Below, piece by piece: positions 17,774 to 50,283 of a stretch of 64,000 bases of DNA. The position numbers and the translations under genes are program-made. The notes beneath the pieces were generated by a model. The model was not told the DNA's origin, did not search any database, and saw nothing but the letters and a program-made list of their open reading frames with translations. The DNA lies in NCBI GenBank assembly GCA_009103225.1, contig RHPI01002823.1:443104-507103 (forward strand), given 5' to 3'. Numbering within the stretch: the first letter of the stretch is position 1; each line of letters begins with the position of its first letter. The stretch comes from Chlorokybus atmophyticus (taxonomy: Eukaryota > Plantae > Mesostigma and Chlorokybus algae).

Positions 17774-17984
17774 CTCGCAGTGCCACCCTCTTTGCTCAAG
17801 TGAGTGTGGTTGCAATCTGCATATCTTAAGTGCAGCTTGTAGTTGGATACATCTTAGTGCATTGTTATCACCATCATCGCATATTGCACACAAGCACTAG
17901 TGTGTTGAGTGATGCCAGTGTTTAGACAGCCTCGTAGAGCACAAACACTCTACGTTCACACACTTTCACCATCGCATCAGCTGC

Positions 17985-20900
17985 ATGAGCAGGTCCACCC
18001 CGTTTTCGCTAATAGACGATGGGAACTTCAGCAGCTGGAGCCCAAACTCCAATCTTATCTACGAGCGAGCAAGTGAAAGAAGCAATTACCTTTGGACAGT
18101 GACAATGAAGAGATGGAGCCTCTCAGCTCAACCAACTCCCTGCGCTTCTCCAAACGTCCAGGGACAACACCATTTAATGAGTTCATCATCCAGTTTCACT
18201 CAAAAATGCGACAACAGGCCCTCAAGAACAAAGACTGGTCAGATGAGGTGTTGTTCCATATCGTGGCTCAGTATCTTGATCATGAGGCACATGATGTGTG
18301 GAAGTCCATTGCTAAGTTGCATAGTGTTGACGGCTATGGCGAGCTTGCCAGCACCATAACATCCATGTCGATGCAAAGCCCAGCAGCTGTCGCCCCTGCA
18401 GCCGTGCTTCCTCAACCTGCAATTACTGGCCAGGCGCTAGCTGCAGCTATGCCAAAGGCAGAGGACGAAGAGCCAAAGATGGTGGTGGCCACCTTGACTC
18501 TTGCAGAGATCGAGACCTAGAGGGCCGACCGTCCTTCTAAAGTGCTGATCGCGTCGCTGTCACCATTAAGGTGTAGCAAGCTGAGCAACAAGCTGCCGCG
18601 GCGGAGATGGGTGCATTGCCACTGCCTACACCGGGGTCGCGTGCTCCAATAGGAGGCAGCACCTTCACCCTCGGTTCGGTGGCACCGTGCGCACCAGTCA
18701 TTACTGCTGGTGCTGCCATGTCCAACTCTCCTCTCAAGGACCTATACGCGGCATTGCGGCGCACATTCCTACCTCAAACCAATAGCAAGGAGGAGCTGAG
18801 ACGCTTCCAACGGAAGCCCAATGAGGACCCTTTCCGGCTGTATTCGTGACCAGACGGATTGCTGAAGGACGCTGACGACAAGATTGTCAGCGAGGAGGCA
18901 GCCGCAGTGGTGTACGTGGTTGAGTTTGACCACACCTTATGATGAACTGCAGCAGGCCCTCGGCTACACGCTCAAAGAAGCTTTTGAGACTGCTTAAGCC
19001 ATTCACAAGCGTGCGCGGTGTATGAGAAAGCAGTGTTGGACACCAACGGAAGCGTATCACGGCCCATGGCAACCACAAGTGCAGAGCCCCTTCAGCGAGA
19101 CCGCAATCGGGATGCTCCCATCAATCTCAACAAGGAGAAACGGTCAGCACATTCTGCCTTTATTACTCCAGTGCTGTGCCACCGGTGCGGTCGGCATGGA
19201 CACTACTAACAAAAGTGCACCGAAGACTATGACAACCTTGTGTGCAACTTCTGCCACAAGATATGACATTTGAAGGCAGTATGCTGGCTCAAGTTCCTTG
19301 AGCTGCGCCCCATGATTAGATACAACAACAGTAACAACGCTAGTGGCTGCCGCTGTAATGGAGTGCTACTGCTATACGGTTCGCCGCCCTTATCTAATTA
19401 GAAATCAGGGTCTCAAAGGGTAATAAACAGCCAATTGAGCCGTATTAGGGCCTTTATGGCCTTGATGTAGTGTTAGCTCATCGTTAACACTGATATCTTT
19501 GTGAGACTCATGTCTCACATCGATATCAGCCGCATGGCGGCGCTGTCAAACGCAGCGGCCGCCATAGCCAGAGCATCTTTTGCTCTGGCAGCTGCCCCGG
19601 CAGTGGCGGCGGCGGTGTGGGCCGGCGGCGTGGCTTGTGGTGGTGGTGGGGTAGGGGATTAAACATGGCGGTAGNNNNNNNNNNNNNNNNNNNNNNNNNN
19701 NNNNNNNNNNNNNNNNNNNNNNNNNNNNNNNNNNNNNNNNNNNNNNNNNNNNNNNNNNNNNNNNNNNNNNNNNNNNNNNNNNNNNNNNNNNNNNNNNNNN
19801 NNNNNNNNNNNNNNNNNNNNNNNNNNNNNNNCCCCCCCCTTACAGCCGCAGCAACAACAATAACAACAAGAGGGGCAACACCAACAGCAATAACGCTGGT
19901 GGCTACAACAACAACAGCGACGCTGGCGGTCGCAACAACGGCAACAATGCTGGTGGTTACAACCCCAACAACAACAACAACACCGGCGCTCGCAAGGACG
20001 AGCCGAGTTACAAAGGGAAGAACCGCCTCCCGCAGCGCAAGAAGCCTGAGGGACGTCCTCATGCTGGAGCTGCTGCTGTCAAGGCACCAGCCAACCCACC
20101 AGCTGTTGACCAAGTGGCAGCCCTCATGGCGCGTGTGGCACAGTTGGAAGAAATCAAGGAGCGGGACTGTCAGGCCTGCTACTTTGCCCGCTAAGCAATA
20201 ATGGCACCAACACCAAAGAGGGACACTCCCATGCCATCACGTGTGCAGCCGACAAGACGTGCGCCCAAACAAGATAATGAATCTTTACTAGCGGCATCAT
20301 AAAAAGCCACAAGTGGTGCCTCCGCTGCTACAACCATTGCTGGGACCGCGTTGTCAATGACGCCGTCGACATCCACACCAACCGCGGCAGCAGGTGCAGG
20401 CACATCAGGCACCATGTTGTCCTCGGTGATGGAAAACATCGACACCGCCGCAGCCATGGTGACCGAGCCCGTGGGTGGTGAAGACATCTCCCCTGCTTCC
20501 ATTGAAGCCACAACATTAGCCACGATTGCGGCCACGCTCACTGCTACGACCTCAGTTACAACAACAGCTGCCGGTGCCACAACCATTACTGCCAGCGACG
20601 TTGCCGCACCCTCTGCAGTACCACCGGAGGTCGTTCGGGCAGCCCCTCCATCAGCACTTGATGTCACTCATTAGCTGCCACGCGGATAGCAAGCACATCG
20701 AGCTTGGGCATCCATCCTATGCAATATCGCACCCACCAACATTGCGTGCGGATTGAAGGGGCAACGCATCACACGAGTGGCAAGGAATAATCGCATCTTA
20801 CCGTTTCCACCACTAGAGTATCACACCCTACCAGAGCCTACAGAGCAACAGCTTGAGGATGAGATACTCGCAGGCACTGCTCCAACCATGCAAGACCAGC

Positions 20901-21573
20901 ACTTCAGGGTCACATACCGGCGACGTGCTGCATTGGTATTGGCAATTAAGCTATTCTTGGCATTACACGCAAGGCTGCATGAGGCGCCGACGAGGGTCTC
21001 GATAGTCAATGCCCGCTCAGCAAATTAATTTTAAGCTTTCACTATTGGACCCGCTTAAACTGCAACGCCGCCAACAGCAAAACCTCATGGTAACCACGCC
21101 GAACTCGCCATTAGAAACTGACCCCATGATTCGTAGGCTTGTGCAAGGGAGCCGTCAAGAGCGATTTCATTTCACCCCTTAAACAAGCATACCACTATCG
21201 GCGGGATTAAGCAGCACAGGTGGATGCGCGTCGTCAAGCGTATGAAGCAGCTCGCGCAGTTCCGCTCAACATGCCGAAGCATCTGATGTCGCCGGTCCTT
21301 CAGTGCACTCGCGTATGTGCCATTATTAGCAACCGCAGTTGTTCCGCAGGGGCAAGCAACTGCTTATCAAGCAAGGGCGCAACAATTGAGGGGGATAATC
21401 GCCCTGCTGCTGCCTTCCTAATCGAGGATATGCCCGAAGATCAGCATGATGCAGGGCGAGGCTACCTCACCCTACAAGGGGACACCACACAGAGAGGAGG
21501 AGCTGGCATGGTAAAAGAGCAACAGCTTCATACCGCTCCCATACAACAAGCAGTCATGCTGCACAGATCCGAG
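17985..21573 (+). pseudogene. gag region of copy B, 5' part
   Basis: MSRSTPFS...EFIIQFHSKMRQQ..., EELRRFQRKPNEDPFRLYS, and CCHC knuckle CHRCGRHGHY. Colinear with copy A ORFs in 36400-33300. Confidence 0.85.
19354..19844. mobile_element. Nested LTR retroelement or solo LTR, mostly collapsed into an N gap
   Basis: Begins TGTAA (19354) and ends TTACA (19844). Flanked by a 5-bp duplication GCCGC (19349-19353 and 19845-19849), inside the Asn-rich gag tract of copy B. Confidence 0.7.
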
Positions 21574-25391: not shown

Positions 25392-25736
25392 CTATTTCAA
25401 GCCATTTGACGCTTGTGACAACTCCGCATATATGGAACGAATGTCGTCTTGTTGCTGAGCAGCAGGTACGCTCGCAGCAATGTGTTGCACTTGTGTAATC
25501 ACATCAATGAGCTCCTCTAGTGGGGATATCGATAAAGGGTCCACTGCCATCGTTGGCATTACAGGTGCCCACTCTTCTTGCATGAAGTCATCGTCACATA
25601 TGTCCCTAATGGCGACCAATTCTGTAGATGTGCCATGTCTGCGCACATGCAGGTCAATGATACCATGCTTGAATTCACTATTAGCTTCAGCTATGCGAAA
25701 TGAGCCCGTCTGGTTACATACAGCTGTGCATCATGC
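25392..25736 (-). pseudogene. 3' remnant of DIRS ORF1 (gag-like), separated from its 5' part by copy A
   Basis: After removing copy A and one ATGC duplicate, the frame runs from ...QLTDDDMLCA (37240-37211) into *CTAVCNQTGSFRIAEANSEFKHGIIDLHVRRHGTSTELVAIRD... Confidence 0.55.
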
Positions 25737-25980
25737 TGTCGGGTCGAAGGGAGTCGAGGGTCACGCTGTCTCGGACAGCTGCATGGACAGCCATGTTGTG
25801 CTGGACATGCTGCTGCGCCACCTGTGTAACGCGTAGCAAAAACAGAAAGATGACCTCAACCCTCATGGTGACAAGTGCTTCGTGCAGCTGGTGTACTGCT
25901 GCTGGGTAGTACGGGCAGATGGAGTCGGTGTTCTCCCTGCAGAACATGCTGTGCTGTAGCATACAACATCAACAAGCCAC
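25737..25980 (-). repeat. Repeat B2 of copy A (3' terminal repeat)
   Basis: Near-identical to 26574-26819 (about 3 substitutions and a 2-nt indel by eye). Confidence 0.95.
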
Positions 25981-26571
25981 TACGATAGGTAGTGCTGTTT
26001 ACACAATTCTTTGCGTGAGTGGAAGAGGAATTACACTGTTAAGTGAGGTGAATGAGCAAGCAACACGTGGATGCTATGCCCTGACTGATGCCAACAAGCA
26101 CACCGCAACCAAGTACATAAAGCTCACAGCGAGGACAAGCACAGTGCACAAGAACATGCACAGGCTCTCACACGGTGAGGATATTCTTGGGAACCAGGAC
26201 GGTGTGTTTCGTAGTTCAAGTCGCTTCACAAGCTCTTAGCTTTCTCACTTACAGTGTCACCAGCTGATCCGGTGAACACTGTGCCTACTTATACAAGTCA
26301 ACTCATGACTGTCCAGAACATAAGCTAATGGTCATATCGAGGCTATTTTCACAGGAAATTACCACTTGATATAGAACCCAACTTATAACTGAACTCACAA
26401 CTGAACAGCTACGCGCGGTGCCTATGTAGGCTATGGTCATGAGCTACTCTAGAGACATGACCTAGCAACTGGTCAGAGGCGCGCGCGAGTTGCCATGCTG
26501 ATAAGCCGGGCGAGGGTCTCGCTGTAGGCATGCCTGATGATGACTGGCATGCTTGGGCGATAGGCATGACA
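25969..26571 (-). repeat. Repeat A2 of copy A (internal copy of the 5' terminus)
   Basis: Near-identical (roughly 95% by eye) to 36608-37210. Confidence 0.95.
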
Positions 26572-26573
26572 GC

Positions 26574-26819
26574 TGTCGGGTCGAGGGGAGTCGAGGGTCA
26601 CGCTGTCTCGGACAGCTGCATGGACAGCCATGTGTTGTGCTGGACATGCTGCTGCGCCACCTGTGTAACGCGTAGCAAAAACAGAAAGATGACCTCAACC
26701 CTCATGGTGACAAGTGCTTTGTGCAGCTGGTGTACTGCTGCTGGGTAGTATGGGCAGATGGAGTCGGTGTTCTCCCTGCAGAACATGCTGTGCTGTAGCA
26801 TACAACATCAACAAGCCAC
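26574..26819 (-). repeat. Repeat B1 of copy A, preceded on the sense strand by a G-run (PPT-like)
   Basis: Copy of B2. The sense strand reads ...CAGGGGGGG-TGGCTTGTTGA. It joins A2 through the palindrome GACAGCTGTC (26568-26577). Confidence 0.95.
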
Positions 26820-26863
26820 CCCCCCTGGGCTCTGGGGGAGGTTCCAGCTCCAGAGCTCAGCTG

Positions 26864-28396
26864 CTAACGCAAGTGAGGAGGGCCATTGGTACGGCAATCG
26901 TCGCACCAATACTCCTCCATAGGTATCGTGTCCAACGGTGGCTCCAGGCAGTAGCAATGTAGGCCCTTGTTGCAGCCATCGCAGAGCATCATGAGTGCGT
27001 CGTTGCCGGCGCTGCCGCAGTGTTCACAGCGTGTGCTGCGCGCGGGACGAGGGTGCTGGATACGCCCGAAGCCGGCTACATAAGGAAGGTGACATGGCGC
27101 ACAGTTCAGCATGTTGTCTTTCAACCTTTCTCCGTTTTGACCAAGGAGGTCCAGCACCCCTGTAGGGTACACTTTGAGTACCTTGTAGACGGTGCGGCAT
27201 ACGGAGGTGTCAAGCGTGTCTTTGGTGGCTGCCATGCGATAGGCAAAGTCCCCCGCTTGGAACCGCCGTTGGCGCTCCTTGTAGAAGCCGCTGCGTACGC
27301 GCTCGTAGCGCAGCGTGTCGCGATGCTGCGCGATGCGCAGGTTGTTGAAGGCCATGGGGACGGTGCGCTCGAAAAGCGCGGCGCGCGCGGTGATGTCGTG
27401 GTGCATCCAGTCAGGGTCGTCGAGGTTGTCCACGACGCGATCCACCTCCTGCTGCGCACGGAAGGGGAGCAATGGTGGTCGCCCGAACAGCAGGTAGTAC
27501 GGGCTGTACTCCCGCAGAGCCGCCTGCTTTGACAATCGATATCCAAGGGCCACCCACGGGAGGTGGTCATCCCAAGTGTTCTTCTCGTACTCCAGCACGT
27601 ATTTGCGGAGTGCCTTCTTGATGGTCTGTACCGTACGCTCGGCGAGGTCGTCGGCTTGAGGGTGATCACGCGAGGTACGGCGGTGGTCGATGTAACATTT
27701 GTCCAAGAGGGTGTCGAATTCCCCTCTGAACTCAGTACCTTGGTCAGTGATGACCTCGGCGCAGCTGCGAAAGCGGCTAAGAACGTGAGAGAGGAAGGCT
27801 TGAGACACCCCCCTGCTGCTCTTGTCGGGTAATGGCACCAGCTCCACCCACTTGGAGAAGTGCTCGGTCATGACCAGGATGTAACGGTTGCCACGCGCTG
27901 AGGGTGCCAAGTCCCCAAAGATGTCGAGTCCCCATCGATAAAAGAGACCGGAGATGGGAAGTGGGTGCAGCTCGGCGCTACGCGTGTTGAGGCTGGCGCG
28001 CACCATGTCACACTGCTGGCAGTGGCTGACGAACCTTTGCACCTGTTTTGTTAATCCATACCACCACTATTGTGCCCTCACTAGGCTGACGGTACGCTTG
28101 ACACCGAAGTGTCCAAGCTCAGTGTGGAGGGAAGTGATGATGCCCTCGCGCGCGACTGGTGTCGGCACTTCCTTGTCTTCGTCGTGGAAGCGGCGATACA
28201 GCTTGTTACCCGCCCATCGATAGTGACGGGTGCGTTGGTTGACCCAGTCCTTCTCTCGAGCGCTCATGCTGTAGGGAAGCTGGCCACTTTGAAGAAATGA
28301 GAGTGATGGCTTGTCCTGCCATATGTCCTGCCTAGTGTCAGTGGGCGCCAGCTCTGTGTCATCGATGTCGATGTCGGCTGCATGGGCGTCTCCCAA
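26864..28396 (-). pseudogene. Integrase (HHCC + DD35E) with C-terminal PHD finger, copy A
   Basis: HTELGH...CQQC zinc domain (one in-frame stop near 28067), WGLD / VITDQG / LAERTVQTIK catalytic core, and C4HC3 PHD CEHC...CDGC...HCYC...WCDDC. Confidence 0.93.
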
Positions 28397-28423
28397 GGGT
28401 GTGGTTGCCGCAGGGTCGGTAGA

Positions 28424-30345
28424 CTAAAGGGCAGGAATCTCCTCTACCACTGCTAAGGCCGTGGTGTTGGTCTTGCGCCCTGAGCGCAACGCGTCAGCAG
28501 CAAACATGGCTGCCATGGTGGGGACTGTTGCTGCAGGGGTGAGCTCATGCCGCGCTCCAGTTGCGTCGTTGGTGCTGAGGTGAGGGTTGCGATTGAGGCC
28601 ATCAGCGTCTTGATTGGTGAGGCCAGCGCGGTGGTCAATCTCAAAGTCGTATTCCTGCAACAGCAGGGCCCATCGAGCAAGTTTCCCTGTCAGATGTTGG
28701 TTGGTCATCAGCCACTTGAGGGGCTGATGATCGGTGATCAGTTGGAACTGTCGACCAAAGAGGAAAGGTCGGAAGAAGGAGATGGCCCACACTGCAGCGA
28801 GGCACTCCCCTTCGTAGCTGCTGTAGTTGGCCTCGGCGCTGTTGTTGCTTCGGCTGGCGTATGACACCACCCGCTCCTTCTTGTTCTCATCGTGCTGCAC
28901 CAGCACCGCTCCCATCCCCAGCTTGCTCCAGATGGTGTGAAGGATGAAAGGCTTGGCGTAGTCCGGACGTTGAAGGATGGGAGCGCTGGTGAGTCTGCTC
29001 TTCAGCTCCTCGAAGGCCTTCTGTTGCGGCTCCTTCCACGCGAACTCCACCTCCTTCTTCAGTAGCTCGTTGAGGGGCCTTGCGATCTTTGCGAAGTTCT
29101 TCACGAACCGGCGATAGTAGTTGGCCAGTCCCAAGAAAGCGCGCAGGCGTGTGAGGTTGGTCGGGGCAGGGATAGCTGCCAGAGCCTCTATTTTTGCCTG
29201 CTGCACATACACACCATGGGGCACAATCATGTGCCCTAAGTACGGCACCTTGTGGGTGAAGAAGGTACACTTGTCAGGGTGTACGGTCATCCCCACTCCC
29301 TTGAGTCGTTCCAGCACCGCTTCGATGTGCTGAAGATGCTCCTCGTTGCTGCGGCTGAAGATGAGGATGTCATCGATGTAGCACCGCGCGCAGTCCAGCC
29401 CCTTCAAGGCTTTGTCCATGACGCGTTGAAACTTGGCGGGGGCATTCTTCAGCCCGAACGGCATTACCTTCCATTGGTACAACTGTCGGTTGCCCCAGAA
29501 GGAGGTCTTGTGCTTGTCCTCGTCCTTGATGGCGATTTGGTTGTACCCCTGACGCATGTCCAGGATGCTGAAGACTGTGCAGTCTCCCACATCATCAAAA
29601 ATACCCTCTGCTGTGGGCATGGGGTACCGGTCTTGCTTGGTCTTGTTGTTGAGGGCGCGATAGTCGCCGCACATGCGTCGCTCTGTCCAGTTGCCGACTG
29701 AATCCTTCTTCAGTGGCATGACGGTTGCTGCTGCGAAGTCCGATGTGGACTCTTCGATAAGGCCTGCATCCAGCAGCGCCTTACATCTCTGTTCCACCAA
29801 GTCTTCTTCCAACTTGGAGAGCCTATATTGTCGTCGGAACACCGGCTCAGTGTCCACCAGCTCGATGTCCATCTGGTACACTGAGCATGTACCCAATTCC
29901 TTCACATTGAAGCTGAATTGGCTCCTCCATTTGTTGAGGAGAGCCTCCAGCTTCTCTCGAGTGTCTTCCGTGGCCCCTCTGCTGTGGGCATGGGGTACCG
30001 GTCTCGCTTGGTCTTGTTGTTGAGAGGGCGATAGTCGCCGCACATGCGTCGCTCTGTCCAGTTGCCGACTGAATCCTTCTTCAGTGGCATGACGGTTGCT
30101 GCTGCGAAGTCCGATGTGGACTCTTCGATAAGGCCTGCATCCAGCAGCGCCTTACATCTCTGTTCCACCAAGTCTTCTTCCAACTTGGAGAGCCTGTATT
30201 GTCGTCGGAACACCGGCTCAGTGTCCACCAGCTCGATGTCCATTTGGTACACTGAGCATGTATCCAATTCCTTCACATTGAAGCTGAATTGGCTCCTCCA
30301 TTTGTTGAGGAGAGCCTCCAGCTTCTCTCGAGTGTCTTTCGTGGC
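28424..30345 (-). pseudogene. Ty3/Gypsy reverse transcriptase and RNase H, copy A (5' part tandemly duplicated)
   Basis: RRMCGDYRALN, FSILDMRQGYNQI, VMPFGLKNAP, CYIDDILIFS, LRAFLGLANYYRRFV, YASRS, YEGECLAAVWA, LITDHQPL, NQDADGL. Confidence 0.95.
29604..30345. repeat. 371-bp tandem duplication within the start of RT in copy A
   Basis: 29604-29974 and 29975-30345 are offset by exactly 371 nt, with a few substitutions. The duplication shifts the frame. Confidence 0.92.
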
Positions 30346-30554
30346 CAACGGGCCAACGGCATGGTCCCAGGAGGTTGCATTGGCAACCACATGAATGTTC
30401 TCCACTGTCACTGCTGCTTGCTCCTCCATGTGGATCACCTCTAGGGCTGTGTGAGCTGCCTTGGTGTCGGCCACGCGATCAGCCCACCCCCCAGCTACGT
30501 GTTCGAGATCCTCGAAGGACACGTGGCGGTCCTGCAACGCGAAGCTCAGCTCCA

Positions 30555-31510
30555 GCAGCCATACCATGCTGTTTTGGTCCATGGCGCGACCAAGCAGCTG
30601 GCATTGCTGACTGTCCGTCAGCGATGAGCCCGTGATGCTGTTGGGGAAGAAATCCCATGGCGCGTTTGCGTTCGCGTGCGTTGGGTTCTTCCAGCCTGTT
30701 GGTGGTCGCAACGAACACCATCCCGTCACCACCGTTTCGAAATGCGTAGGAGCCCGGGTAGGACACCAATGTGGGGAGTGCGCGACGGGGCTGACCGGGC
30801 TGATTGCACGGGTAGAAGTGGTTGTGGTCATGACGCAGGACAGGTTGTGCTGTGCGGCCGGGGTCAAGGATGTCGTCGACCAGCAGGTTGCGCGGCCGAG
30901 CGCTGCGTGTGTATTCGGCGGTCATGAGTTCCTTTACGGTGGCCAAGTTTGTCCATTTGGCACGTACACGATGTGCGCGCGAGCCATGTCATGCCGCGTT
31001 CACCTTGAGTGGGTGCCCCAAGATGGAGCAAACTTGGCGGTAGCTGGAGGGCACGTGCGGACGCTTGTCGTCCTCTGAATGCACATTTTCGATGACGTAC
31101 CCCAGGGGTCTGGAGATCTGGTGGTGTTGAAGGAGGTGGATGATCCTCATCAGCTCCCAGAATAGCCTGGAGCGAGGGTTTTCGAGGCCTTGCCCCTTGC
31201 CTGCCCTGGAGTGCCCTTGACATTCCCATCCAGCTATTAACAGGTCGACGTTGCCGAGGGACAGTAGGTGATCTTCAGTGATCAGCCGGACGTCCTGTGG
31301 CAACGCTTTGAGGCTGCCTTGCAACGCCGAGAGGGGTAGTTGACGTGGATACCTGGCGTGCAGTTGGCGTAAGTGGTGCTTGAGGACCGTTTGCGTGTGT
31401 GGGTCTGGGTCACAGTAATAGTATTTGACAACCTTCACGCCCGTGGTGAGGACCGCAGCAAGACCACTGCCAATGCCTCCAAACAGCTCCAACACTGTGA
31501 TGCCCTGTTG
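30555..31510 (-). pseudogene. C5 cytosine DNA methyltransferase domain between protease and RT, copy A
   Basis: Motif I VLELFGGIG, motif IV LLIAGWECQGHS, motif VI YVIENV, motif VIII AA*HGSRAHRVRAKWTNL, motif IX ERKRAMGF, motif X LLGRAMDQNSM. One stop and frameshifts in the TRD/C-terminal part. Confidence 0.92.
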
Positions 31511-31738
31511 CCTGCGAAAGGTGTGGAACTCCACCACTCCGGTGGCCACCATATGGTGGTCCTGCACCTTGACGTGGCTTCGGTAGTTGGGGAAGCGCGT
31601 GGTGATCTGTGGATGGCTGAGCAAGATGTGTGCGTCCACCTGTGCGCGCCAGCGCCGTTCAGCTGGGTCTTGTAATGCTACTTCCACGGTGGCATCCTCC
31701 TGCTCCTCGTTGTACGGGATGGGAGAGGAGTCGCCGGT

Positions 31739-32391
31739 TTAACACGGGGCCGTGGCACCCGCAGCGACTTGCGTCCGAGCGCCGTCGTTTGTGGCCATTA
31801 CAGCCTTCCGGGTGCGGGCGTGGCTGCGTGTGGCCATGGCAGCCATTTTGCGTTGGACTCGCGTGCGCGAGACCAACTCGAGAGGTAGGAAACCCTGTAC
31901 CTCTCCGTCATCCTCATCCCAATGTGGCCGAAACCACGCTCGCTCTATCCAGCAGTCGAGGCCCATGCCCACAGGGAAGTTGAAGTCCTGCCCAAGCAGA
32001 AAGTCGAAGGAGCCGGCATTGGTGACCACACATTGCTGGACGATCTCGGTAGTGTGGGTTGGGTCCAGCCCTGTCAACCGAATGCAAAAGGCCTCCCTGG
32101 TGACTCCCATCACCTTATCTCGGCTACCTGGGCAGTGTCCAACACGTACGGGCAAGGCACCAAGTCGGAGCTGGTTATGTCTAGGGACCGCGCGAGGAAG
32201 CGCCCGATGATGACAGGCTGTGCTCCGGTGTCCAACATTACTCGCTTGGGTGCCAGACCGTTGATGGTAACGTGCTTGCCTTGGTTGGCCACCATGGCAG
32301 CATTGGCGTCGATGCGCAGCCTCTTTATACGAGGTGTCTGTACCTCTGACTCAGTTGTCTCAGTTGGCGGTGCTGAGCGCATGGCAGCCAA
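31739..32391 (-). pseudogene. Retroviral-type aspartic protease, copy A
   Basis: RVMLDTGAQPVIIG, followed after a frameshift by FDFLLGQDF. Confidence 0.85.
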
Positions 32392-32457
32392 AGCTCCTCT
32401 GCCTGCTGGGTCCGGAGAACCCCCTCCTTGCCCTCTCCCTCTGCCGAACCGACCTTG

Positions 32458-35400
32458 TCATGGTGGTTGGTAGACACGGGGGGGCCTCAGTGCTGGAGGT
32501 TCCGGCGCTGGTTGTGGTGGCGGAGCAGGTGGATGACCCCTCTGCGAAGCTAGAATCATGCCCGCGGGTGTACCCAATGGCTGTGGAGGAAACCCCGGCG
32601 GACCCGGTGTTTGTGGGCCTGCCTCGCGTTCAGCTTGCTCCGCGGCGTACGTCCATCGAACAGCATGAGCCGCTTCTTGGACCAATGTCCCTTCCCACGT
32701 GGCCGTGGGCTCGGTGTCCGTGTCGGTCCAATGATGATATTGAGGCATAGGCTGCAGGTATACGGCGCGTAGTAGCTGTCGCCGCATGTCGTGAGTAATG
32801 GTGGGGACTCGCAAGATCCCTGCCACGTAGGCATCCCACCTTCCTTGTACCACTCCCACATCGAGCACGGTCATGGCGCGAGCGCGTAGGGTGCGCTGGA
32901 GTTCAGTCTGCTGTGCGTGTAGCTCATGAGCAATGGCGATGCGCCGCCGTTGCCGTGCGGCTTCCACCCCTGACAGCCGCAGCATTGCCTCTTGCACCCC
33001 CTCCAGCGTGTCCGGGGCTGTGGTGGCAGCCTCGTCGTATGCTTGTCGCAGCGAACCAACGAATGCCCCCAACCATGATGCTCGGTTGTCAAAGGCAAAC
33101 AGGGGGACAGCAGGGTGATTGGCAACGAGCCATGTCACGAGACGGGCTCGAGCGGCGCTGCCTTCTTGCATCCCCATCATCTGTCTTAATGTGTTGCCCT
33201 CAGGCCTGTGCAACATGACTGCTTGCCGGATGAGTGCGGTACGGAGTTGTTGCTCCCCCACCATACCAGCTCCTCCTCGTTGTGTGGTGTCCCCTTGCGG
33301 GGTGAGGTATCCTCGCCCTGCGTCGCGTTGATCCTCAGGCATGTCTTCGACCAAAGGAGGCAGCAGCGGGGCAATTACCCCCCTCAATTGTTGCGCCAAC
33401 GCCCTCACTTGGTCTGCAACAGTTGCGTGTCCTGGCTGCTTGATGGCGATTGCCGTGGAGTACGCTGTGGTCAGCGCTGTAGAGGCGCTGGCAACATTTG
33501 CTGGCGCTCCGATCGGTACGATAACGGTGTGTGCTGCTTCGTACGCTTGTCGGCGCATGTCCACTTGGGCAGCTTGGTCCATTCGACAACGATGGGCCTG
33601 TTCAAGTGCAGAGAAACGCTCTTGACGACTGGAGTGAGCCCCCGGAGAGCGGGATCAGCGCCCAGCGCGATGTCAGACATGGTGACCACGAGGTTTTGCA
33701 TTTTGTGTCGCTGGAGACCGAGCGGGTCCAGTGGTGAGGGCTCGAAGTCGATCTGTTGAGCGGGCATGGGTTGCTGCGTTTGACTGGGTGCGCCCTGCAA
33801 TCGTGCGTGTAATGCCAGGAACAACTGGATGGCCAGCTCCAATACCGCAGGTCGTCGGTAGGTGACCCCGAACAGACGATCGCTCATCTCTGGTGCAGTG
33901 CCGGCGAGGATTTCATCCTCCAGCTGTTGTTGTGTGGGTTCCGGCAGCGTGTGGTACTCTGGAGGTGGCAGGGGCAAGATACGATCATCGCGTGCCACGC
34001 GCGTGGTGCGTTGCCCCCCTGGTCCGTACGCAATGGTGGTGGGTTCCACGTTGTGTAGAACCGACACCCAGGCGCGCTCTGCTTGTGGCCCGCGTGGCAC
34101 TTGCTGTGTGACGTCCAACGCTGGTGGCGGTGCCATTCGTCCCTTAAAAAGTGGTGCAGTGGGTATGGCAGCACTACTGGAGGCGATGGTGGTGGCACCT
34201 GCAGCAGTCGTCGAGACTGAGGTGGCGGCTGTGAGGGTGGCAGCAGTTGCGGTTGATGTGGCCGCTTCGATGAAGGCAGGAGTGGTGGATTCACCACTTA
34301 CGAACGCAACGACCATGGTTGTTGCGGCGTGGGTGCTCTCCATCACCGGGGACAGCGTGGTGCCAAGAGTGCTGACACCTGCTGTCGTGGTCGGTGTGGA
34401 TGCCGACGGTGTCGTCGACGGCGTCGTCCCAGCGGTGGTTGTGGCTGCCGAGGCAGCACCACTTGCGGCGTCCGACGATGCCGCTGTTGACGACGCGCCA
34501 GCTTCCCTGCGCGCACGTCTGGATGGTTGTACGCGTGACGGCGTGGGAGTGTCCCTATCCCGTTTCGGTGCCATCAGTGCCCACCTAGCAGCATAGCAGG
34601 CTTGATAGTCCTGCTTCTTGTTCTCCTCCAGCTGTGCCACGCGCGCCATCAGAACTGCCACTTGGTCAATAGCCGGTGGATTGGTTGGTGCCTTTACAGC
34701 AGCAGCTCCAGCGCTAGGACGTCCCTAAAGTCCTTTGTGCTGTGGAGGGCGGTTTTTCCCTCTATAGCCAGCTTCTTCCTTGCGGGCGCTAGCGTTGTTG
34801 TTGTTGTTGTTGGGGTTGTGGCCACCAGCGTTGTTGCCGTTGTTGCGACCACCAGCGTTGTTGCTGTTGTTGTAGCCGCCAGCGTGGTTGCTGTTGTTGT
34901 AGCCCCCGTTGTTGTTGTTGTTGTTGTTGTTGCCGCGGTAGCTAACAGTGTTTTTGCCGTTGTTGTAGCCAATAGAGGGCCGCAGCTCAGGGAACTTGAG
35001 TCAGCATACTGTCTCCAAATGTCCCGTCTTGTGGCAGTGGTCGCACACAAGGTTGCCGTAATCTTCGGTGCACTCTTTTTGGTAGTGGCCATGTCGACCA
35101 CACCAGTGGCACAGCACTGGAGCCACAAGGGCAGCATGAGCTGACCGTTTATCCTTGTAATGGATGCCTTGCGGCTCGCGGCTGCGGTCCCGCCGAAGAG
35201 GCTCCGCACTTGTGCCTGCCATAGGCCGTGAGGCACTGCGGTTGGTGTTCAGCACCGCTTTCTCATACACTGCACGCTTATGGATGGCTTGTGTAGTCTC
35301 GAAAGCTTCCTTGAGGGTGTAGCCGAGGGGCCTGCTGTAGTTCAGCGTCAGGCGCGTTGACTCACTTAGGGTGGGATCCAACTCGGCCACATACACCACT

Positions 35401-36400
35401 GCTGCCGCCTCCTCACTGACGATCTTGTAGTCAGTGTCTTTAAGCAACCCTTCCAACCGTGAATACAGTCGGAGAGGGTCCTCGTGGGGCTTCCGTCGAA
35501 AACGCCTCAACTCCTCCACCTTGCTGTTGGTTTGAGGTGGGAAGGTGCGCCGAAGTGCGGCGTAGAGGTCCTTCAACGGGGAGTCCGACATGGCCGCGCC
35601 CACCGTAAGCGCGGGTGCACGCAATGCCACTGAGCCAAGGGTGAAAACACTGGCTCCTGCTGGAGCACGCGAGTTCGGTGTTGGTAGCAAGGGCATACCC
35701 ATCTCCAATGCTGCAGCTTGCTGCTCCTCTTGTTGCTCCCTGATGATGGCAGCGGTGCGGTTGAGTATCCTGATCCGGCGCTCGGCCTTCTTGCTTTTGA
35801 TCTCTGCAGGAGTCAATGAGGCCACTACCACCTCAACTTCTTCATTCTCTGCCTTCTCCATGGCTGCAGCTAGAGTGAGACCCGTGACTGAGGCGGGCGG
35901 GGCCGCTGCTACAGGGACCGTAACCGATGGGCTGTGCATTGATGTGGCGGCTATTGTGCTGGCCAACTCGCCATAGCCATCTTGTGTAACTCAGCGATGG
36001 ACTTCCACACATCATGTGCTTCGTGAACAAGGTATTGGGCGGACACATGAAACGATACCTCGTCTGTCCAGTCCTTGCTCTTGAGGGCTTGCTGCCGCAT
36101 CTTGGAGTGGAACTTGATGATGAACTCGTCAAGTGAGGTGGTGCCAGGGCGTCCGGAGAAGCGTAGGGAGTTGGTTGAGCTGAAAGGCTCCATCTCTTCG
36201 TCGTCACTGTCCGATGGTGGTGGAGATGCTCGTTGACGAGGAGTGGAGTGAGAGGAGGTGAAGCCGGAGACGGGGCGTGAGCCTCTGCTGCTACGGTAAT
36301 CGCTCCCTTCACTTGCGCGCTCGTAGGTAAGGTTGGAGGTTGGGCTCCAGCTGTTGAGGTCCCCTGCTTCCATTGGCGAGAAAGGGGTGGGCCTGCTCAT
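32458..36400 (-). pseudogene. Unusually long gag region of copy A, with two CCHC zinc knuckles and low-complexity tracts
   Basis: ORFs 35951-36400, 35001-35966 (CHWCGRHGHYQKEC; CDHCHKTGHLETVC), an Asn/Gly tract at ~34790-34960, 33471-34661 (Thr/Ala/Ser-rich) and 32458-33582. Colinear with copy B. Confidence 0.85.
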
Positions 36401-36607
36401 ACAGCTGATGCGATGGTGAAAGTGGATGAAGGGTAGAGTGTTTGTGCTCTACAATGGGATCTCCAGTGCTGCTATCACCCAACACACTAGCGCTTGTGCG
36501 CGCTATGCGATGACAACACTGCACTGTGATGTGTACAACTACAGATTGCGATGCTTATGTACAGCCTGCAACTACACTCACTTGAGCAAAGAGGGTGACA
36601 CTGTAAG

Positions 36608-37210
36608 TCAACAAGCCACTACGATAGGTAGTGCTGTTTACACAGTTCTTTGCGTGAGTGGAAGAGAAATTACACTGTTAAGTGAGGTGAATGAGCAAGC
36701 AACACGTGGATGCTATGCCCTGACTGATGCCAACAAGCACACCGCGACCAAGTACACAAAGCTCACAGCAAGGACAAGCACAGTGCACAAGAACATGCAC
36801 AGGCTCTCACACGGTGAGGGGATTCTTGGGAACCAGGACGGTGTGTTTCGTAGTTCAAGTCGCTTCACAAGCTCTTAGCATTCTCACTTACAGTGTCACC
36901 AGCTGATCCGGTGAACACTGTGCCTACTTATACAAGTCAACTCATAATTGTCCAGAACGTAAGCTAACGGTCATACCGAGGCTATTTCCACAGGAAATTA
37001 CCACTCGATATAGAACCCGACTTATAACTGAACTCACAACTGAACAGCTACGCGCGGTGCCTATGTAGGCTATGGTCATGAGCTACTCTAGAGACATGAC
37101 CTAGCTACTGGTCAGAGGCGCGCGCGAGTTGCCATGCTGGTAAGCCGGGCGAAGGTCTCGCTGTAGGCATGCCCGATGATGACTGGCATGCTTGGGCGAT
37201 AGGCATGACA
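36608..37210 (-). repeat. Repeat A1 of copy A (5' terminal repeat)
   Basis: Starts TGTCATGCC on the sense strand and ends with the 12-nt GTGGCTTGTTGA shared with the start of B. Copy of A2. Confidence 0.95.
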
Positions 37211-39029
37211 ATGCACATAGCATATCGTCATCTGTGAGCTGCACTTATGGCACGCTATAGTACATGGTTCAGACATGCATACATGTGCAGCTGCGCGCAT
37301 CCATGCATACACGCGCGCTTGCGCATTACCATGATACACACCAGCACCTGCATCTCTCGACATGCACTACCACAGGACTATAGCTACTCAGCAGCTGTAC
37401 TACCAGCATCACTCACTGCTGCAATGCTAGGCGTGGCTGCTCTTGCACGGGGACATAGTATGCTTCCTGTGGAGCGGGTGCAGCCTGCTGATGGTAATAG
37501 CCACCTCCGCGACCGTAACCGCCACGACCACCACGGCCGTAGCCACCACGACCGCGGCCACGCTGGAATTGGGTATTGCCCGCTTCTGCGACTGAGCGCC
37601 TGCACGCGCACAATGTGTCATGTGCAACATAGATCACGTGAGGCTTATAAGCATGCCATGCTGCAGTGCTGCATACACATTGTGTGCAGCCTGCAGAGGC
37701 ATCGATGCGCACTCTGCCCTTTCATGTTCAACAAGATGAGAATTGCCAACAATGAGCACTGCATGCGTAACTTGTAGCTCAACCAACAAAGGGCTGAATG
37801 CATATTGTGTGCAGCCTTGCGTAACTTGTAGCTTAAACAACCAAGGGCCACATGCACATTGTGTGCAGCCTTGCGAGTCGACGCTATATGCGATGCATGC
37901 GCACATTGTGCGGCTTTATGACTAACCAAGGGCTGCATGCACATTGTGTGCAGCCATAAGAACAGGTGATGCGCACATTGTGTGACTTAATGATTGCACA
38001 TTGTGCACTTTCAGCGTATTGTGTGCATTGCACATGGTCTATAGTTGCTGCGCTTCGCAGTGCTTACTGTGCACTTACGACAGTGCCAATACTTGCAACG
38101 AATGTGGTGATTGACCAAGTTGACAACATCAGCTTGCAACCAACAAGTAGACTTACAGAGGAGCGGATGTCTTTGCCTTCTGCATAGCCGCTTTGCCTTA
38201 AAGGTGTCGGCGAGCTTGGTGAGACGGCGGATGATCTTGTCATCCTTGTCGCGATTAATGCGGGCATCATTGATGATACCACGCGCCCCCGACGCAAAGG
38301 CTGTCGCAAAGTCCAAGCTACCGTGCATGCGTGAGCAGCATGTGGTAGAGAAGTGCTACCATCTGCGACACTGGCGGACCTGTGAAAAGGGCGACCGATT
38401 GCCTCGAAGCAGGCTTGCACGCAAGGTGAGAGCTTGCGCGAGCGGTGCTCTTCCCACAATGCATATGTCTCCGAGTTTTTGGACAGGCGCTTGGTGAAGC
38501 CAGTCTTCTTAAAGCATGTTGAATGGGCAGAAGATTCGGAGCTGTCATCATCTGAGGATGAGCTCGATGACGATGACGGAGTCAATGGCGAAGAGGATGT
38601 GCGTTTCTTTTTGTGTGTAGAAGCCTTCTTCTTCTTCTTCTTCTTCTTCTTGTTCTTGTTCTTCTTGTGTTTGTGCTTCTTCTTCATCACCTCCTCTTCC
38701 CCCTCAGATGACAATGCCTCCCCTCTCCTGCGGCGACGGCGTGGCACCTTGGGCAACTTCACAATGAGCTCTGAGGGCTGTGCAGCGTCTTCCAGGGTCA
38801 CGCCCTGCGCCCGCGTCACAGCGTCACGCCCTGCGCCAGCTTTTGCACATGACTTCGGCAGCGGCACCAGCTGCGTAGCTATAGGGGCAGGCTGCGTAGG
38901 CCTAGCCTTCGGAGCACTCCTCTTGTCGGCCGCGCTGTTTTGCCCCTCATCGGCCGGACCTCCAGCGGCCTGCTCCGGTTGCGCGGCTCCAGCGGCCGCA
39001 GGCCGCTTCTTCATTGTCTTTGGCGGCAT
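37211..39029 (-). pseudogene. DIRS ORF1 (gag-like), 5' part, with Lys-rich, Ser-rich and RGG-rich segments
   Basis: ORF 38064-39029 (MPPKTMKKRP..., poly-K, poly-S), then frameshifted HGSLDFATAF... and RGRGRGGYGRGGRGGYGRGGG at ~37500-37590. It lies just downstream of R2 on the minus strand. Identity is inferred from position only. Confidence 0.45.
37674..38010. repeat. Array of about 7 copies of the quasi-palindromic motif GCACATTGTGTGCAGCC
   Basis: Full or partial copies near 37674, 37800, 37853, 37901, 37938, 37972 and 37996, irregularly spaced. Confidence 0.7.
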
Positions 39030-41669: not shown

Positions 41670-44600
41670 GAGGGCAGAGCGTTACGACAGGTAGTGGGGT
41701 TGCGAGAGGGCAGCGCAACGCGAGCACGGCTCGCCGCTGCTCGCCGCTAACCACCCCGCTATTCCCATGTTTGCATTTGACAACAAAGCATCGTGGTTGG
41801 GGGCATTCATATGTTCACTGCGGCAAGCATACAATAAAGCTGCCACCACTGCTCCAAACACTTTTGAGAGAGTGCAAAAGGCAATGCTGCGGCTGTCAGG
41901 AGTGGAAGCCGCACGACAATAAGAGCGCATTGCCATCGCTCATGAGCTACACGCGCAGCAGACCAACCTCCAACGCACCATATGGGCACGCGCCACGACG
42001 GTGCTCGATGTGGATGTGGTACAAGGAAGGTGGGATGCTTGCATGGCAGGGATCTTGCGGGTCCCCACCATTACCCACGACATGCGGCGACAGCTACTAC
42101 GCGCAGTGTATCTGCAGCCTATGCCCCAATACCACCAGTAGATCATCAACGTGGTTGCAGCGCCCACGGCCATGTGGAAGGGGACATTGGTCAGAGAGGC
42201 GTATCATGCTGACAATGAGCCTACGCGGCAGAGCAAGCAAAACGCGAGGCAGGCCCACAACACCATGCCCACCAGGCTTTCCACCACAGCCGTTGGGGAC
42301 ATCAGCAGGCATGATCCCCTCCTCGCAAAGCCGGCATCCACCACAGCCAGCACCAAAATCTCCAGCTAAAAGGCCTCCTCGCATCTACCAGCCACCACGA
42401 CAAGGCCGATTTGGCAGAGGGAGAGGCCAAGAAGGGGGTCCTCAAGATCCAGCAGGTAGAGGAGCTCTGGCTGCAATGCGCTTAGCACCCTCAGTTGCGA
42501 AATGTCAGGCACCGATGTCAGCAGCCCGCACAAAAAGGCTGCGCATCAATGTCAACACTATCTTGATTGCCAACGCAGGCAAACATATGACAATAAAAGG
42601 CCTGGCACCCAAGCAAGTGATATTGAACATCAGTGCATAGCCTGTCATCATCGAGCGCTTCCTCGCGCACCCTTGGCATCACCAGCTCGGACTTGTTGCC
42701 CTGCCCACATGTGCTTGACACTGCGACATGCAGCCGCAACAAGGTGATGGGGGTCAACAGGGAGGTCTTTTGCATTCAGTTGACGGGGCTAGACCACCCC
42801 CACACAGAAATCACGCAGTTGTGCGTGGTCACCAATGCCGGTTCCTTCGCCTTTCTGCTTGGGTCGGACTTCACTTCTTGGTGGGCATGGGCCTTTGCTG
42901 CTGGATAGAGCAGGCTTGGTTCCAACCACATTGAGATGAAGATGACAGGCAGGTACAAGGTTTCCCGGCTCACACGAGTTGGTGTCACAGGTGCCCAACG
43001 CAAAGTGCCTGCCGCAGCCACTCGCAACCATGGAGAGGCTGCCTCAGCCACATACGACAGCGCTCGCACTAGAGTCGCTACCGTTGTAGCTGTCCCTTGC
43101 CGCCGATGACTCCGCTCCCATTCCCTACCGTGAAGAGCAGGAGGATGCCACTGTGCAGGTGGCATTACAAGATCCGGCCGCACGCCGTTGGTGGGCACAG
43201 GTGGATGCACACCTTCTGCTGACATAGCCATTGATCAACTCGCGCTTCCACAAGTATAGAAGCAAAGGCCAATAGCAAAATCAACATATGGTGGCCACCG
43301 GGGTGGTGGAATTCCACATCTTCCGGCGTCAACAGGGCATTACAATGTTACAGTCAACAGGGCATTACAGTTCAGAGGCATTGGCAGTGGTCTTGCCGCT
43401 GTCCTCAACACAGGAGTCAAGGTAACCTAGTCCAACGATTGTGACTCCAACCCACACGTGCAAACAGCCCTCAAGCACCACTTGCTTCAGCTCCACGAGC
43501 GTTACCCACAGCAATTGCCGTTGTCGGCATTGCAAGGCAGCTCAAAGGTATTGTCACAAGACATCCGGCTGATCATCAAAGACCATCTGCTGTTCCTCGG
43601 CAACATAAACTTGTTAATAGCTGGCTGGGAGTGCCAAGGACACTTCAGAGCAGGACAACCCTGAGCGGGGGTCTTCAGGGCCTTAGCCTTCAAACTTCAG
43701 GGCTAAGGCCCTGAAGACCCCCGCTCAGGGTTGTCCTGCTCTGAAGTGTCCTTGGCACTCCCAGCCCTGAAGTGTGAAGGCTAAGGCCCTGAGGACCCCG
43801 GCTCAGGGTTGTCCTAAAAGTTGATGAGAGTTATCCATCTCCTTCAGCAGCACCATACCTTCAGGCCACTTGGGTATACCATTAAGTGTTCACTCGGAGG
43901 ACAATAAGCATCCTCATATGGCCTCCAGCTACTGGCAGGTGTGCTCCATTCTTCGCACCCACTCAAGATGAACGCAGCACAACATGGCTCGCGTGCACAT
44001 TGCGTACGCGTCACGTGGACAGGCTTGGCCACCACGGAGGGGCTGATGACAGCTGAATACACGCGCAGCACACGGCCACCTGGTCAACACATCCTTGACC
44101 CTGGCCGCAAGGCCCAATCTATCACGCGTCACAATTACAACCACTTCCCGCGCAACCAACCAGAACAACCACGCCGAGCACTTCCCACGTTGGTGTCTTA
44201 TGAGGGCTTTTATGCCTTTCGCAATTGAGGGGAGGGCACGGTGTTCGATAAGACAACGGACAAGCTGAAAGAATCCAACGCGCGCGAAGGCAAACGCATC
44301 AGGAGCTTCTTCTTACACAGCATCAGAGGTTGACCACTAATTGACAGCCAGCAGTGTCAGCTGCTCGGCCGCACTATGGACAAAACAGCATCGTGTAGCT
44401 GCTAGAGCTCAGCTTTGCAATGCTAGACGGCCATGTGTCCTTTGAGGATCTCAAACACCTGGCCTAGGGGGTGGGCTGATCGCATTGCCGACACCAAAGC
44501 AGCTCACACAGTCCTCGAGGTGGCGCACATGGCGCAGCAGGCAGCCGTGACAGTGGAAGACATTCCCGTGGTTGCCAACACAGCATCATGGGACCACGCC

Positions 44601-46406
44601 ATTGGTCCTCTTGCTATAGAGGACACACGAGAGAAGCTGAAGGCTCTCCTCAACAAGTGGAGGAGCCAACTCAGCTTTTATGTGAAGGAGTTAGGCACGT
44701 GCTCAGTGTATAAGATGGACATCGAGCTAGTGGACACCGAGCCGGTGTTCCGACGGCAATACATGTCCTTCAAATTAGAGAAAGACCTGGTGGAACACAA
44801 ATGCACGGCGCTGCTTAACGCAGGCCTCATTCAGAAGTTCACATCGGACTTTGCAACTGCGACCATTACGCCACTAAGGAAGGATTTAGCAGGCAATTAG
44901 CGAACAAACGGGCGCATATGCGGCGACTACGGCCCCCGAAACAATAAGACCAAACAAGACAAGTACCTAATGCCTACAACAGAGGGTATCTTTGATGATC
45001 ATCATGATGTAGGAGACTGCACAATCTTCGGCATCCTCAACATGCGTCAAGGGTACAACCAAATCGCCATCAGGGACGAGAACAAGCACAAGACTTCCTT
45101 CTGAGGCAACCGACAATTGTATCACTGGAAGGTGATGCCGTTCGGGTCAAAAAGTGCCCCCGTCAAATTCTAGCACGTTATGGGCAAAGCCTTCACGGGG
45201 GTGAATATTGCGCGGTTATGCATTGACAATATCCTCATCTTCAGCCGCAGTAACGAAAAAGCACCTTCAGCACATCGAGGCGTTGCTGGAGCACTCAAGG
45301 GAGGGGATGACTGTGCACCTCGACAAGTGCACCTTCTTACCCACAAGGTGCCATACTTAAGGCACATAATTGTGACATATGGTGTGTATGTAAAGCAGGC
45401 AAAGGTGGAGGCCTTGGCAGCTATCCCTGCCCCCACAGACCTCACGCATTTGCGCGCCAATAGTAGGGGCCTTGCCAAAATCTATTGGCGGTTCGTAATT
45501 ACGCTATGATCGCGCGGCCCTTTAACGAGCTACTGAAGAAGGAAATGGAGTTCGCATGGAAGGAGCCACAGCAACAGGCCTTTAAGGAGGTAAGGAGCAG
45601 GCTCACCACTGCTCCATCCTTCAACGCACTGACTACACCAAGCCTTTCATCCTTCACACCAATGAGAGCAAGCTCGGGATGGGAGCCGTGCTGGTACAAC
45701 ACGACAAGAAGCGGGTGGTGTCGTAAGCCAGCGGAAGCAACAACAGCGCCGAGGCCAACTACAGCAGCAACGGGGGCGAGTGCTTCGCTGCAGTGTAGGC
45801 TATCTCCTTCTTTTGGCCCTTCCTCTTCGGTCAACGGTTTCAGTTGATCATTGACCATCAGGCACTCAAATGGTTAATGACCAACCAACACTTAACAGGC
45901 AAACATGCCCAATGGGCATTGTTGCTACTGGACTACGATTTAAGATCGACCGCTGCGCTGGCCTTGCCAGCCAAGACGCTGGTGGGCTCAGCCCAAAACC
46001 CCACCTTAGCACAAACAACGCAACTGGAGCTTGACATAAGCTTGGTCCTGCAGCTGCAGCCCCTATGATGGCTGCCATGTTTGTCATCGCCGCGCTACGC
46101 TCGGGGCGCAAGACCAACACAGCTGCAACAGTCGCTGCTAAGGAGATGCCCGCTCTTGAGCCAACCAACGCTGCAGCAAACACATAGAACACTCGTGCTG
46201 TCGACACCGAGATCGATAACATAGAGCTGGCACCCACCGACATCAAGCAGAACATATGGCTGGACAAGCCATCCCTTTCCTTCCTTTAAAAGTGGCCAGC
46301 TCCCCGCCGGCATGAGTGCGCGCCAGAAGGTCCGCGCCAATCAACACACTCAGCATTTTCGGTGGGCAGATGTGGGCAGATGACAAACTTTACCGTCGTC
46401 TTCATG
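41670..46406 (+). pseudogene. Copy B: gag end, protease, C5-DNMT, RT and RNase H (degenerate)
   Basis: NINLLIAGWECQGH (~43600-43645), YAEPVFRRQY-like segment (44730-44760), CGDY, VMPFG, CIDNILIF and DHQALKWL, with many stops. Confidence 0.88.
43623..43766. repeat. Perfect 66-bp inverted repeat with a 12-nt spacer, in the DNMT region of copy B
   Basis: 43623-43688 is the exact reverse complement of 43701-43766. Confidence 0.92.
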
Positions 46407-50179: not shown

Positions 50180-50240
50180 AAGCTGAGCTCTGAAGCTGAA
50201 ACCTTCTCAGAAGCTAGGGGGGGGGGGGGGGGGGGGGCTN

Positions 50241-50278
<38 letters not shown>

Positions 50279-50283
<5 letters not shown>

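Follow-up and report, generated by a model that had tools for sequence, protein, structure and literature searches.

A green-algal Ty3/Gypsy retrotransposon with split repeats, whose integrase may act at a palindrome inside the long terminal repeat

The 64,000-nucleotide (nt) stretch of Chlorokybus atmophyticus DNA considered here (assembly GCA_009103225.1, contig RHPI01002823.1, positions 443,104 to 507,103; hereafter the window) contains on its minus strand, from 37210 to 25737, a Ty3/Gypsy retrotransposon of 11,474 base pairs (bp) whose repeats are split, in the order A1-gag-pol-B1-A2-B2. All of the coordinates that an initial annotation, made from the letters alone, had given for this order check: A1 (37210-36608) and A2 (26571-25969) are identical at 583 of 603 alignment columns, and B1 (26819-26574) and B2 (25980-25737) at 241 of 246, while the last 12 nt of A are also the first 12 nt of B. 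The features of the element are as follows, where LTR stands for long terminal repeat, RT for reverse transcriptase, cDNA for complementary DNA and E for expectation value.

37211..37214, minus strand: left copy of the target-site duplication, GCAT (sequence and empty-site contig)
36608..37210, minus strand: A1, 603 bp, beginning with TGTC; promoter and 3' portion of the LTR (B+A) (repeat alignment)
36926..36932, minus strand: TATA-like box in A1, 32 nt upstream of the self-primer (same spacing in the relatives' unrelated A repeats)
36886..36900, minus strand: predicted RNA 5' end and self-primer, 15 nt complementary to the post-A1 site (predicted start; shuffles)
36594..36608, minus strand: putative primer-binding site adjoining A1, Tf1-type self-priming (complementarity)
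34697..36448, minus strand: gag-like region, several broken frames (Cys/His knuckle-like motifs, by eye)
32113..32457, minus strand: aspartic protease piece (PF13650, E 6.5e-06)
30482..31738, minus strand: C5 cytosine methyltransferase domain, in two pieces (PF00145, E 6.9e-11)
29604..30346, strand not assigned: 371-bp tandem duplication at the start of RT (copies 98% alike)
28427..30151, minus strand: RT and RNase H (Pfam; match to the Ty3 RT structure)
26867..28423, minus strand: integrase (zinc finger, core) and C-terminal PHD finger (Pfam, triad alignment)
26820..26826, minus strand: purine/G-run adjoining B1, polypurine-tract-like (same position in relatives)
26574..26819, minus strand: B1, 246 bp, with GACA at its end; 5' portion of the LTR (B+A) (repeat alignment)
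26568..26577, strand not assigned: palindrome GACA-GC-TGTC at the B1-A2 junction, putative internal integrase attachment site (bridged by an X2 contig)
25969..26571, minus strand: A2, 603 bp (repeat alignment)
25969..25980, minus strand: A2-B2 joint, 12 nt common to the A end and B start; the place where the cDNA ends would be joined
25737..25980, minus strand: B2, 244 bp, ends GACA (repeat alignment)
25733..25736, minus strand: right copy of the target-site duplication, GCAT (sequence and empty-site contig)

On the sense strand the element and its flanks read GCAT/TGTCAT...CCGACA/GCAT, with an exact 4-bp duplication, in agreement with the TGTC...GACA ends first proposed and with the TG...CA ends and target duplications of 4-6 bp that mark Ty3/Gypsy LTR elements. 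Support independent of the assembly came from public sequencing runs, 4 of the 7 listed covering part of the stretch. A contig of run X1 links 25732 to 37211 and omits 11,478 bases, i.e. 11,474 plus 4, the 4 letters being compatible with either side of the join; this empty site shows the boundaries and the duplication to be real, and fixes them independently of the window's assembly. The palindrome GACA-GC-TGTC, which the initial annotation had placed at the junction of B1 and A2, is likewise present, and is spanned by a contig of run X2 from a separate study (26492-26606); the sequence GACAGCTGTC occurs in the window at 26568 and 50508. Among the listed contig matches of the host runs there were no further element-end flanks, and hence no additional host duplications. 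Contig depth hints at many copies with the B-A junction, depth being no copy number and not used as such.

The element is Ty3/Gypsy by its proteins, not by its structure, and is not of the DIRS/PAT kind. Its domains follow one another as gag-like region, protease, C5 cytosine methyltransferase, RT, RNase H, integrase and PHD finger, within which the Ty3/Gypsy pol order protease-RT-RNase H-integrase is found; the gag-like region has no Pfam match, and the coding region of this copy is broken by stops, frameshifts and the 371-bp duplication. The closest solved structure to the RT is that of Ty3 RT (E 5e-77), followed by a match at 1e-51 and by retroviral ones at 1e-28 or weaker, all of these values expressing similarity only. 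The integrase is of the DDE type, as had been noted, with a zinc finger and the triad D48-D108-E143 in the frame 28066-26867; the first D is present in 25, the second D in 26 and the E in 25 of 27 aligned integrases of the clade, and in all 27 the D-to-E spacing is 34 residues, one fewer than in foamy-virus integrase. A PHD finger stands in place of a chromodomain after the integrase. No tyrosine recombinase was matched by Pfam in the element's stop-free frames on both strands, a scan that left shorter broken pieces outside, nor in the relatives' long intact frames. Named relatives of the integrase among the matches listed (120 of 152) come from Klebsormidium, Calypogeia, Closterium, Haematococcus, Tetrabaena and Chromochloris, and integrase-PHD proteins of K. 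nitens, at 45-48% identity, are among the best of those listed.

The initial annotation knew of no description of such a layout in a retrotransposon with a DDE integrase, but one exists. De Mendoza et al. 2018 reported KnitGypsy-Dnmt3 from Klebsormidium nitens, the legend to their Fig. 4c giving it DIRS-type repeats and Gypsy domains and their Fig. 1e defining the DIRS repeat structure as A-coding-B-A-B (PMC5890265). The present element, which shares with it the Gypsy domains, the cytosine methyltransferase in pol and the A-coding-B-A-B repeats, is of the KnitGypsy-Dnmt3 type, matched by the published description rather than by sequence. In the passages of that report dealing with the element, the ends, duplication, palindrome, priming and mechanism are not described (PMC5890265). 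Relatives of the present element reach liverwort and chlorophyte proteins. The literature searched gave no account of mechanism, ends or duplications for this layout, which was found in PMC5890265 alone, with subscription papers, theses, Repbase and figures outside the scope of the search. The layout is therefore already in print, and what would be new is the mechanism.

Directly after A1 lies a site that is a perfect 15-nt complement of the sequence starting 32 nt after the TATA box of A. In the Ty3/Gypsy elements Tf1/sushi and Tcn1, the first bases of the RNA are described as complementary to a site just past the upstream LTR, without a transfer RNA (tRNA) site (PMC7175516, PMC6317226), and here too the 5' end of the RNA, as placed by its spacing from the TATA box, is complementary to the site following the upstream repeat. 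The self-primer is found at TATA+31/32, in different letters, in 11 of 15 A1 copies of relatives and likewise in loci L001, L037 and L045; the perfect complement measures 15, 15 and 17 nt in three families, a length reached by 0 of 500 shuffles in each. By eye the post-A1 sequence is unlike a tRNA 3' end, no dedicated search for tRNA priming having been made. The primer helix is predicted at 0.98-1.0 when the RNA is trimmed to run from primer to site, a trimming that favours the helix by construction. At the other end of the coding region a G-run stands directly before B1, as it does before B in relatives. The element thus has a candidate primer site after its 5' repeat and a candidate purine tract before its 3' repeat, functions assigned from sequence; neither signal was part of the initial annotation, which also lacked the methyltransferase domain and the 12-nt overlap of A end and B start.

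By retroviral logic, the primer site and the purine tract set the ends of the cDNA. Applied here, they place those ends at the start of B and the end of A, from which it follows that the LTR would be B-GC-A, with the palindrome inside it. It is very unlikely that the palindrome serves only as a template for the ends, with some unusual priming giving a linear DNA that ends in GC-TGTC and GACA-GC and from which integrase trims two bases: such a scheme requires only the usual integrase reaction, and the 2-nt spacer equals the usual 2-nt overhang, but there is no primer signal at the palindrome, the signals lying at the B start and A end, and a single shared GC would have to set both ends. Since copies end at the palindrome, and not at the inferred cDNA ends, integrase must act internally. 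That it does so at the palindrome is highly probable, this being common to the mechanism we favour and to the two alternatives weighed below, in which the second B is made during reverse transcription or the cDNA is closed as in DIRS-like elements.

Relatives were collected by a scan of metagenome contigs, in which 522 of 600 stretches were confirmed and the best 80 (42-56% identity) used; 15 of these loci have too little DNA past the integrase, 2 (L013, L077) are without a B match, 14 are of divergent families, and 49 are of two low-GC (guanine plus cytosine) families, 8 of the 49 repeating sites already counted, which leaves 41 distinct sites. Among viral contigs, 28 pattern matches gave 0 confirmed relatives.

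The two junctions behave differently in these loci. At the B1-A2 junction the spacer is 2 nt at 21 of 21 distinct sites, and at 19 it is GC or a C>T/G>A decay product of GC; the exact sequence GACAGCTGTC is matched 10 times in the 863,309 bases that the loci comprise, representing 8 distinct sites, and each match lies at the B-A junction after the G-run. The palindrome or a palindromic variant is present in 7 of 12 distinct divergent loci, and lies on both sides of an unrooted integrase tree (42 rows). The A and B repeats of six families gave no cross-family blastn match, so that the palindrome alone has been held constant; what had been put forward as a family trait proves to be a trait of the clade among these relatives. 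The A2-B2 joint, by contrast, varies: of 19 main-family sites, 7 have a blunt joint, 5 have one that is two nt shorter and 7 show some other alteration (classes assigned by eye), such as the large deletion of L010, the deletion plus filler base of L012 or additional bases, and the joint differs even between the sister copies L036 and L042. In the low-GC family the A end and B start share only 0-2 nt, and a 12-nt primer there would give exactly the commonest, blunt joint. With B-A constant and A-B variable, the circle junction is, judging by these sequences, probably A-B rather than B-A: the B-A junction, first taken to mimic an end-to-end circle junction, would be an internal LTR site that is copied intact, the cDNA ends meeting at the variable A-B joint. 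B1 and B2 within one copy share private variants, with a transversion and indel distance of 0.024 within copies and 0.053 between them, and the distance of A1 to A2 is 0.035 within a copy and 0.097 between copies.

These observations bear on the model first proposed, in which a cDNA running from A1 to B2 is circularised on the B1-A2 template, as proposed for PAT, TOC1 and Ngaro, and integrase then opens the new junction. It would yield A...B-A-B directly and never A-B-A...B, the layout equals that described for split-direct-repeat elements (PMC8969392, PMC6681497), and the B1-A2 junction does consist of both element ends plus 2 nt. We nevertheless regard it as distinctly improbable, as it gives no role to the G-run before B1 or to the self-priming site after A1, which persist in families whose repeats are unrelated and together place the cDNA ends at the B start and A end, and as the A-B joint should be inherited unchanged, yet varies, including between the sisters L036 and L042.

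Copies fall into two classes. Of the 41 distinct sites, 21 end in B-A-B, the form that the initial annotation would have counted as support if most copies had it, and 20 end in a single B followed by flank, so that it holds for about half; integrated copies are A...B-A-B or A...B, and are not flanked by two whole LTRs. Among the 8 distinct complete A...B-A-B copies the target duplication is exact in 4, one transition off in 3 and absent in 1, and among the 6 one-B copies with a visible 5' end it is exact in 4 and absent in 2. The loci contain 16 5' ends, one of them preceded by just 158 bases, and the window 2; at none of these was B found upstream of A1. Across 37 main-family sites the two classes are intermixed on the tree and have diverged equally, with terminal branches of 0.056 for one-B and 0.054 for B-A-B copies (p = 0.99), and one-B copies are therefore no older. 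Two loci look like imprecise end events: L070 (2615-2713), whose start carries a partial duplicate of the first ~99 bases of A, and L010 (2477-2552), where ~76 bases of A2 are left before B2, joined at a shared TACAT.

It is hardly credible that the layout is an assembly error, or that an ordinary two-LTR element acquired it by accident in one copy or two. The window's assembly does contain gaps and N runs, as well as poly-G at 50217-50280 and 197 bp exactly duplicated beside an N, but the empty site in X1, the B1-A2 junction bridged in X2, the 8 distinct complete copies in other hosts with duplications exact (4) or one transition off (3), the 8 repeated sites, which a second assembly shows in the same form each time, and the earlier report of the layout (PMC5890265) have already largely refuted such an explanation.

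The account that we favour for the ends, duplications, empty site, priming signals, palindrome conservation and two copy classes, with a probability of roughly 0.55, is that RT makes an ordinary BA-internal-BA DNA and that integrase, instead of processing the ends of this DNA, cuts the palindrome inside the LTR. The RNA would begin in A1, 32 nt past the TATA box, and its first 12-15 nt, paired with the post-A1 site, would start minus-strand synthesis in the manner of Tf1; plus-strand synthesis would start from the G-run before B1, giving a product with the LTR B-GC-A at each end. In the upstream LTR, integrase would then cleave both strands of the palindrome after CA, leaving two ends with 2-nt 5' overhangs that would be inserted 4 bp apart. 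Cleavage of this kind was suggested in the initial annotation, and would fit the precise ends, the duplications of 4 bp and a palindrome that is conserved from family to family. The true cDNA ends, at the A end and B start, would be joined either before integration, as a 2-LTR circle, or after it, by repair. Joining end to end would give A...B-A-B, which retains an intact B-GC-A LTR and would be replication-competent; joining through LTR homology (a 1-LTR circle or B/B annealing) would give A...B, a dead end without an intact LTR, and A...B could also come from integration of doubly cut DNA. Put in evolutionary terms, and at the same rough odds, the attachment site of integrase in a green-algal and bryophyte Ty3/Gypsy clade would have shifted away from the LTR edges to a mid-LTR palindrome, making DNA of the LTR-circle type an obligatory precursor, the first such case for a DDE-integrase retroelement, with joining of the 2-LTR type leading to live copies and of the 1-LTR type to dead ones.

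A variant that keeps the same priming and the internal cut, with the second B made by RT, through a template switch from the A end to the B start or through RNA reading into B2, and with one-B copies arising by later chromosomal recombination between B1 and B2, appears unlikely. The 12 nt common to the A end and B start in the focal family would suffice for a switch, the absence of A-B-A...B would follow from a directional RT step, and in relatives B1 and B2 lie ~470 bp apart, an easy distance for recombination, by which the duplication would be kept. Set against these points, the low-GC family has only 0-2 nt common at its A-B joints, which include blunt joints, deletions and extra bases, and the one-B copies are no older than the others.

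Several observations weigh against cutting of the internal palindrome as set out above. A plain 2-LTR circle with two equal palindromes should also yield A-B-A...B, a form not seen among the relatives' sites; the complete single-cut forms stand at 8 to 0, for which the chance is 0.004 if the process is symmetric. An asymmetry between the two palindromes must therefore be assumed, and we suggest that the upstream LTR, finished first, would be engaged first, sparing the downstream palindrome. The B-A-B arrangement itself is demonstrated in three families only, the contigs of L001, L018, L037 and L045 read pol-B-A-primer site(-gag), compatible with more than one layout, and 5 of the 12 distinct divergent loci (L024, L030, L032, L052, L057) have no clear palindrome. 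The nearest sequence to B2 is its own B1 in only 8 of 15 copies, and the nearest to A2 its own A1 in 3 of 7. Forms of the A-B joint show no clustering on the tree (5 changes against a shuffle mean of 4.1), a comparison of low power in which a control trait gave p = 0.079; the form two nt shorter could be slippage in ATAT, and the one-B copies may stem from later recombination. When the RNA is folded over 333 nt, starting 2 nt earlier and extending past the primer site, the best structure is without the primer helix. Circle junctions of murine leukaemia virus were also reported to be poor integration substrates (cited in PMC1180852).

The cleavage step on which the favoured mechanism turns has precedents. 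As the initial annotation stated, foamy-virus integrase in vitro cuts the LTR-LTR palindrome after CA on both strands, leaving 2-nt 5' overhangs (PMC1180852), and the HIV-1 (human immunodeficiency virus type 1) integrase cuts such a palindrome likewise, as a tetramer, 2-LTR circles being reported to feed integration (PMC1905944, PMC4372172). In those viruses the palindrome arises by joining of cDNA ends, on a side path; here, unlike in foamy virus or HIV-1, the LTR itself encodes it internally, and integrated copies end nowhere else. Tf1/sushi and Tcn1 share the self-priming site directly after the upstream repeat, and differ in being described with two whole LTRs, integrase sites at the outer edges and mostly a chromodomain, where the present element has an internal site and, besides a methyltransferase, a PHD finger. 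The split-direct-repeat elements PAT, TOC1, Ngaro, VIPER and TATE have the same A1-internal-B1-A2-B2 order, with an internal B-A joint made of both element ends, but are described with a tyrosine recombinase and without target duplication (PMC8969392, PMC6681497). In contrast to them, the present element combines a DDE integrase and a Ty3-like RT with a 4-bp duplication and priming signals of the LTR type, and the likeness is probably convergent. Green-algal Gypsy elements with a PHD finger have been known from Chlamydomonas, REM1 being a PHD-bearing Gypsy element of that alga. Gypsy-7a_cRei, also of Chlamydomonas, is active and has a PHD finger, and the legend to Fig. 6A mentions 'LTR subparts'; it is described, however, with left and right LTRs that differ by 8 bp (PMC9940879). 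If it is a member of the present clade, it would offer a ready experimental system.

Natural integrated copies end only at the internal palindrome, which makes the reaction testable with a short oligonucleotide and a natural integrase. LTR circles as integration precursors have been argued over for decades in retroviruses, where circle-junction cleavage is at most a side path. If the favoured mechanism is true, what is normally a dead end, joined or circular DNA, would be this element's route into the genome, and DIRS-like split repeats could arise from an ordinary LTR by a shift of the attachment site. LTR finders that seek two flanking repeats will miss or mis-bound such elements, above all the one-B half, which have no terminal repeat.

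The methyltransferase is widespread in the clade, with a match in 41 of the 44 listed relatives' loci that have more than 2,500 bases upstream, so that Gypsy elements bearing a DNA methyltransferase extend well beyond Klebsormidium. Its position differs: in the window, in L001 and in the low-GC families it precedes RT, and in L019, L024, L030, L037, L045/L047 and L052 it stands between RNase H and integrase. A protein search with the methyltransferase returned 9 longer relatives, none of them from K. nitens. A G-patch domain also occurs in L024 and L039, and in L019 an extra open frame of 794 amino acids (11450-13831) lies between pol and the G-run, B and palindrome.

The window holds a second, older copy of the element in two parts:

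17190..21566, plus strand: older copy, 5' part (A1, primer site, gag) (alignment to the focal element)
41670..51302, plus strand: older copy, 3' part (pol, B1, palindrome 50508-50517, A2, B2) (alignment to the focal element)

The diverged copy recognised by the initial annotation does carry the identical junction at 50508-50517, but is no more than the 3' part of this older element, the 5' part being that at 17190-21566. In element coordinates the two meet at 4005/4010; in the window they are separated by ~20 kb, including the focal element. The repeats of the older copy are 80-82% alike, and its 4-bp duplication is not confirmed (GCGC versus GCTG); the 371-bp duplication at 29604-30346, which breaks the RT frame in the focal copy and may be either real or an assembly error, is absent from it. 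Within the intervening ~20 kb (21567-41669), segments 21767-21892 and 39102-39209 resemble each other (73%), perhaps as the ends of another mobile element. Inside the methyltransferase region of the older copy there is a near-perfect inverted repeat at 43623-43815 (144 bp, 96%), perhaps a small inverted-repeat element. The poly-G with N at its G-run (50217-50280) looks like an assembly or sequencing artefact, as does the exact 197-bp duplicate at 41899-42095 and 51948-52144, which ends at a single N. Elsewhere in the window, 7406-8251, whose magnesium-chelatase domain points to a photosynthetic host, is a piece of a CobN/magnesium-chelatase gene, a host gene (E 9.9e-34).

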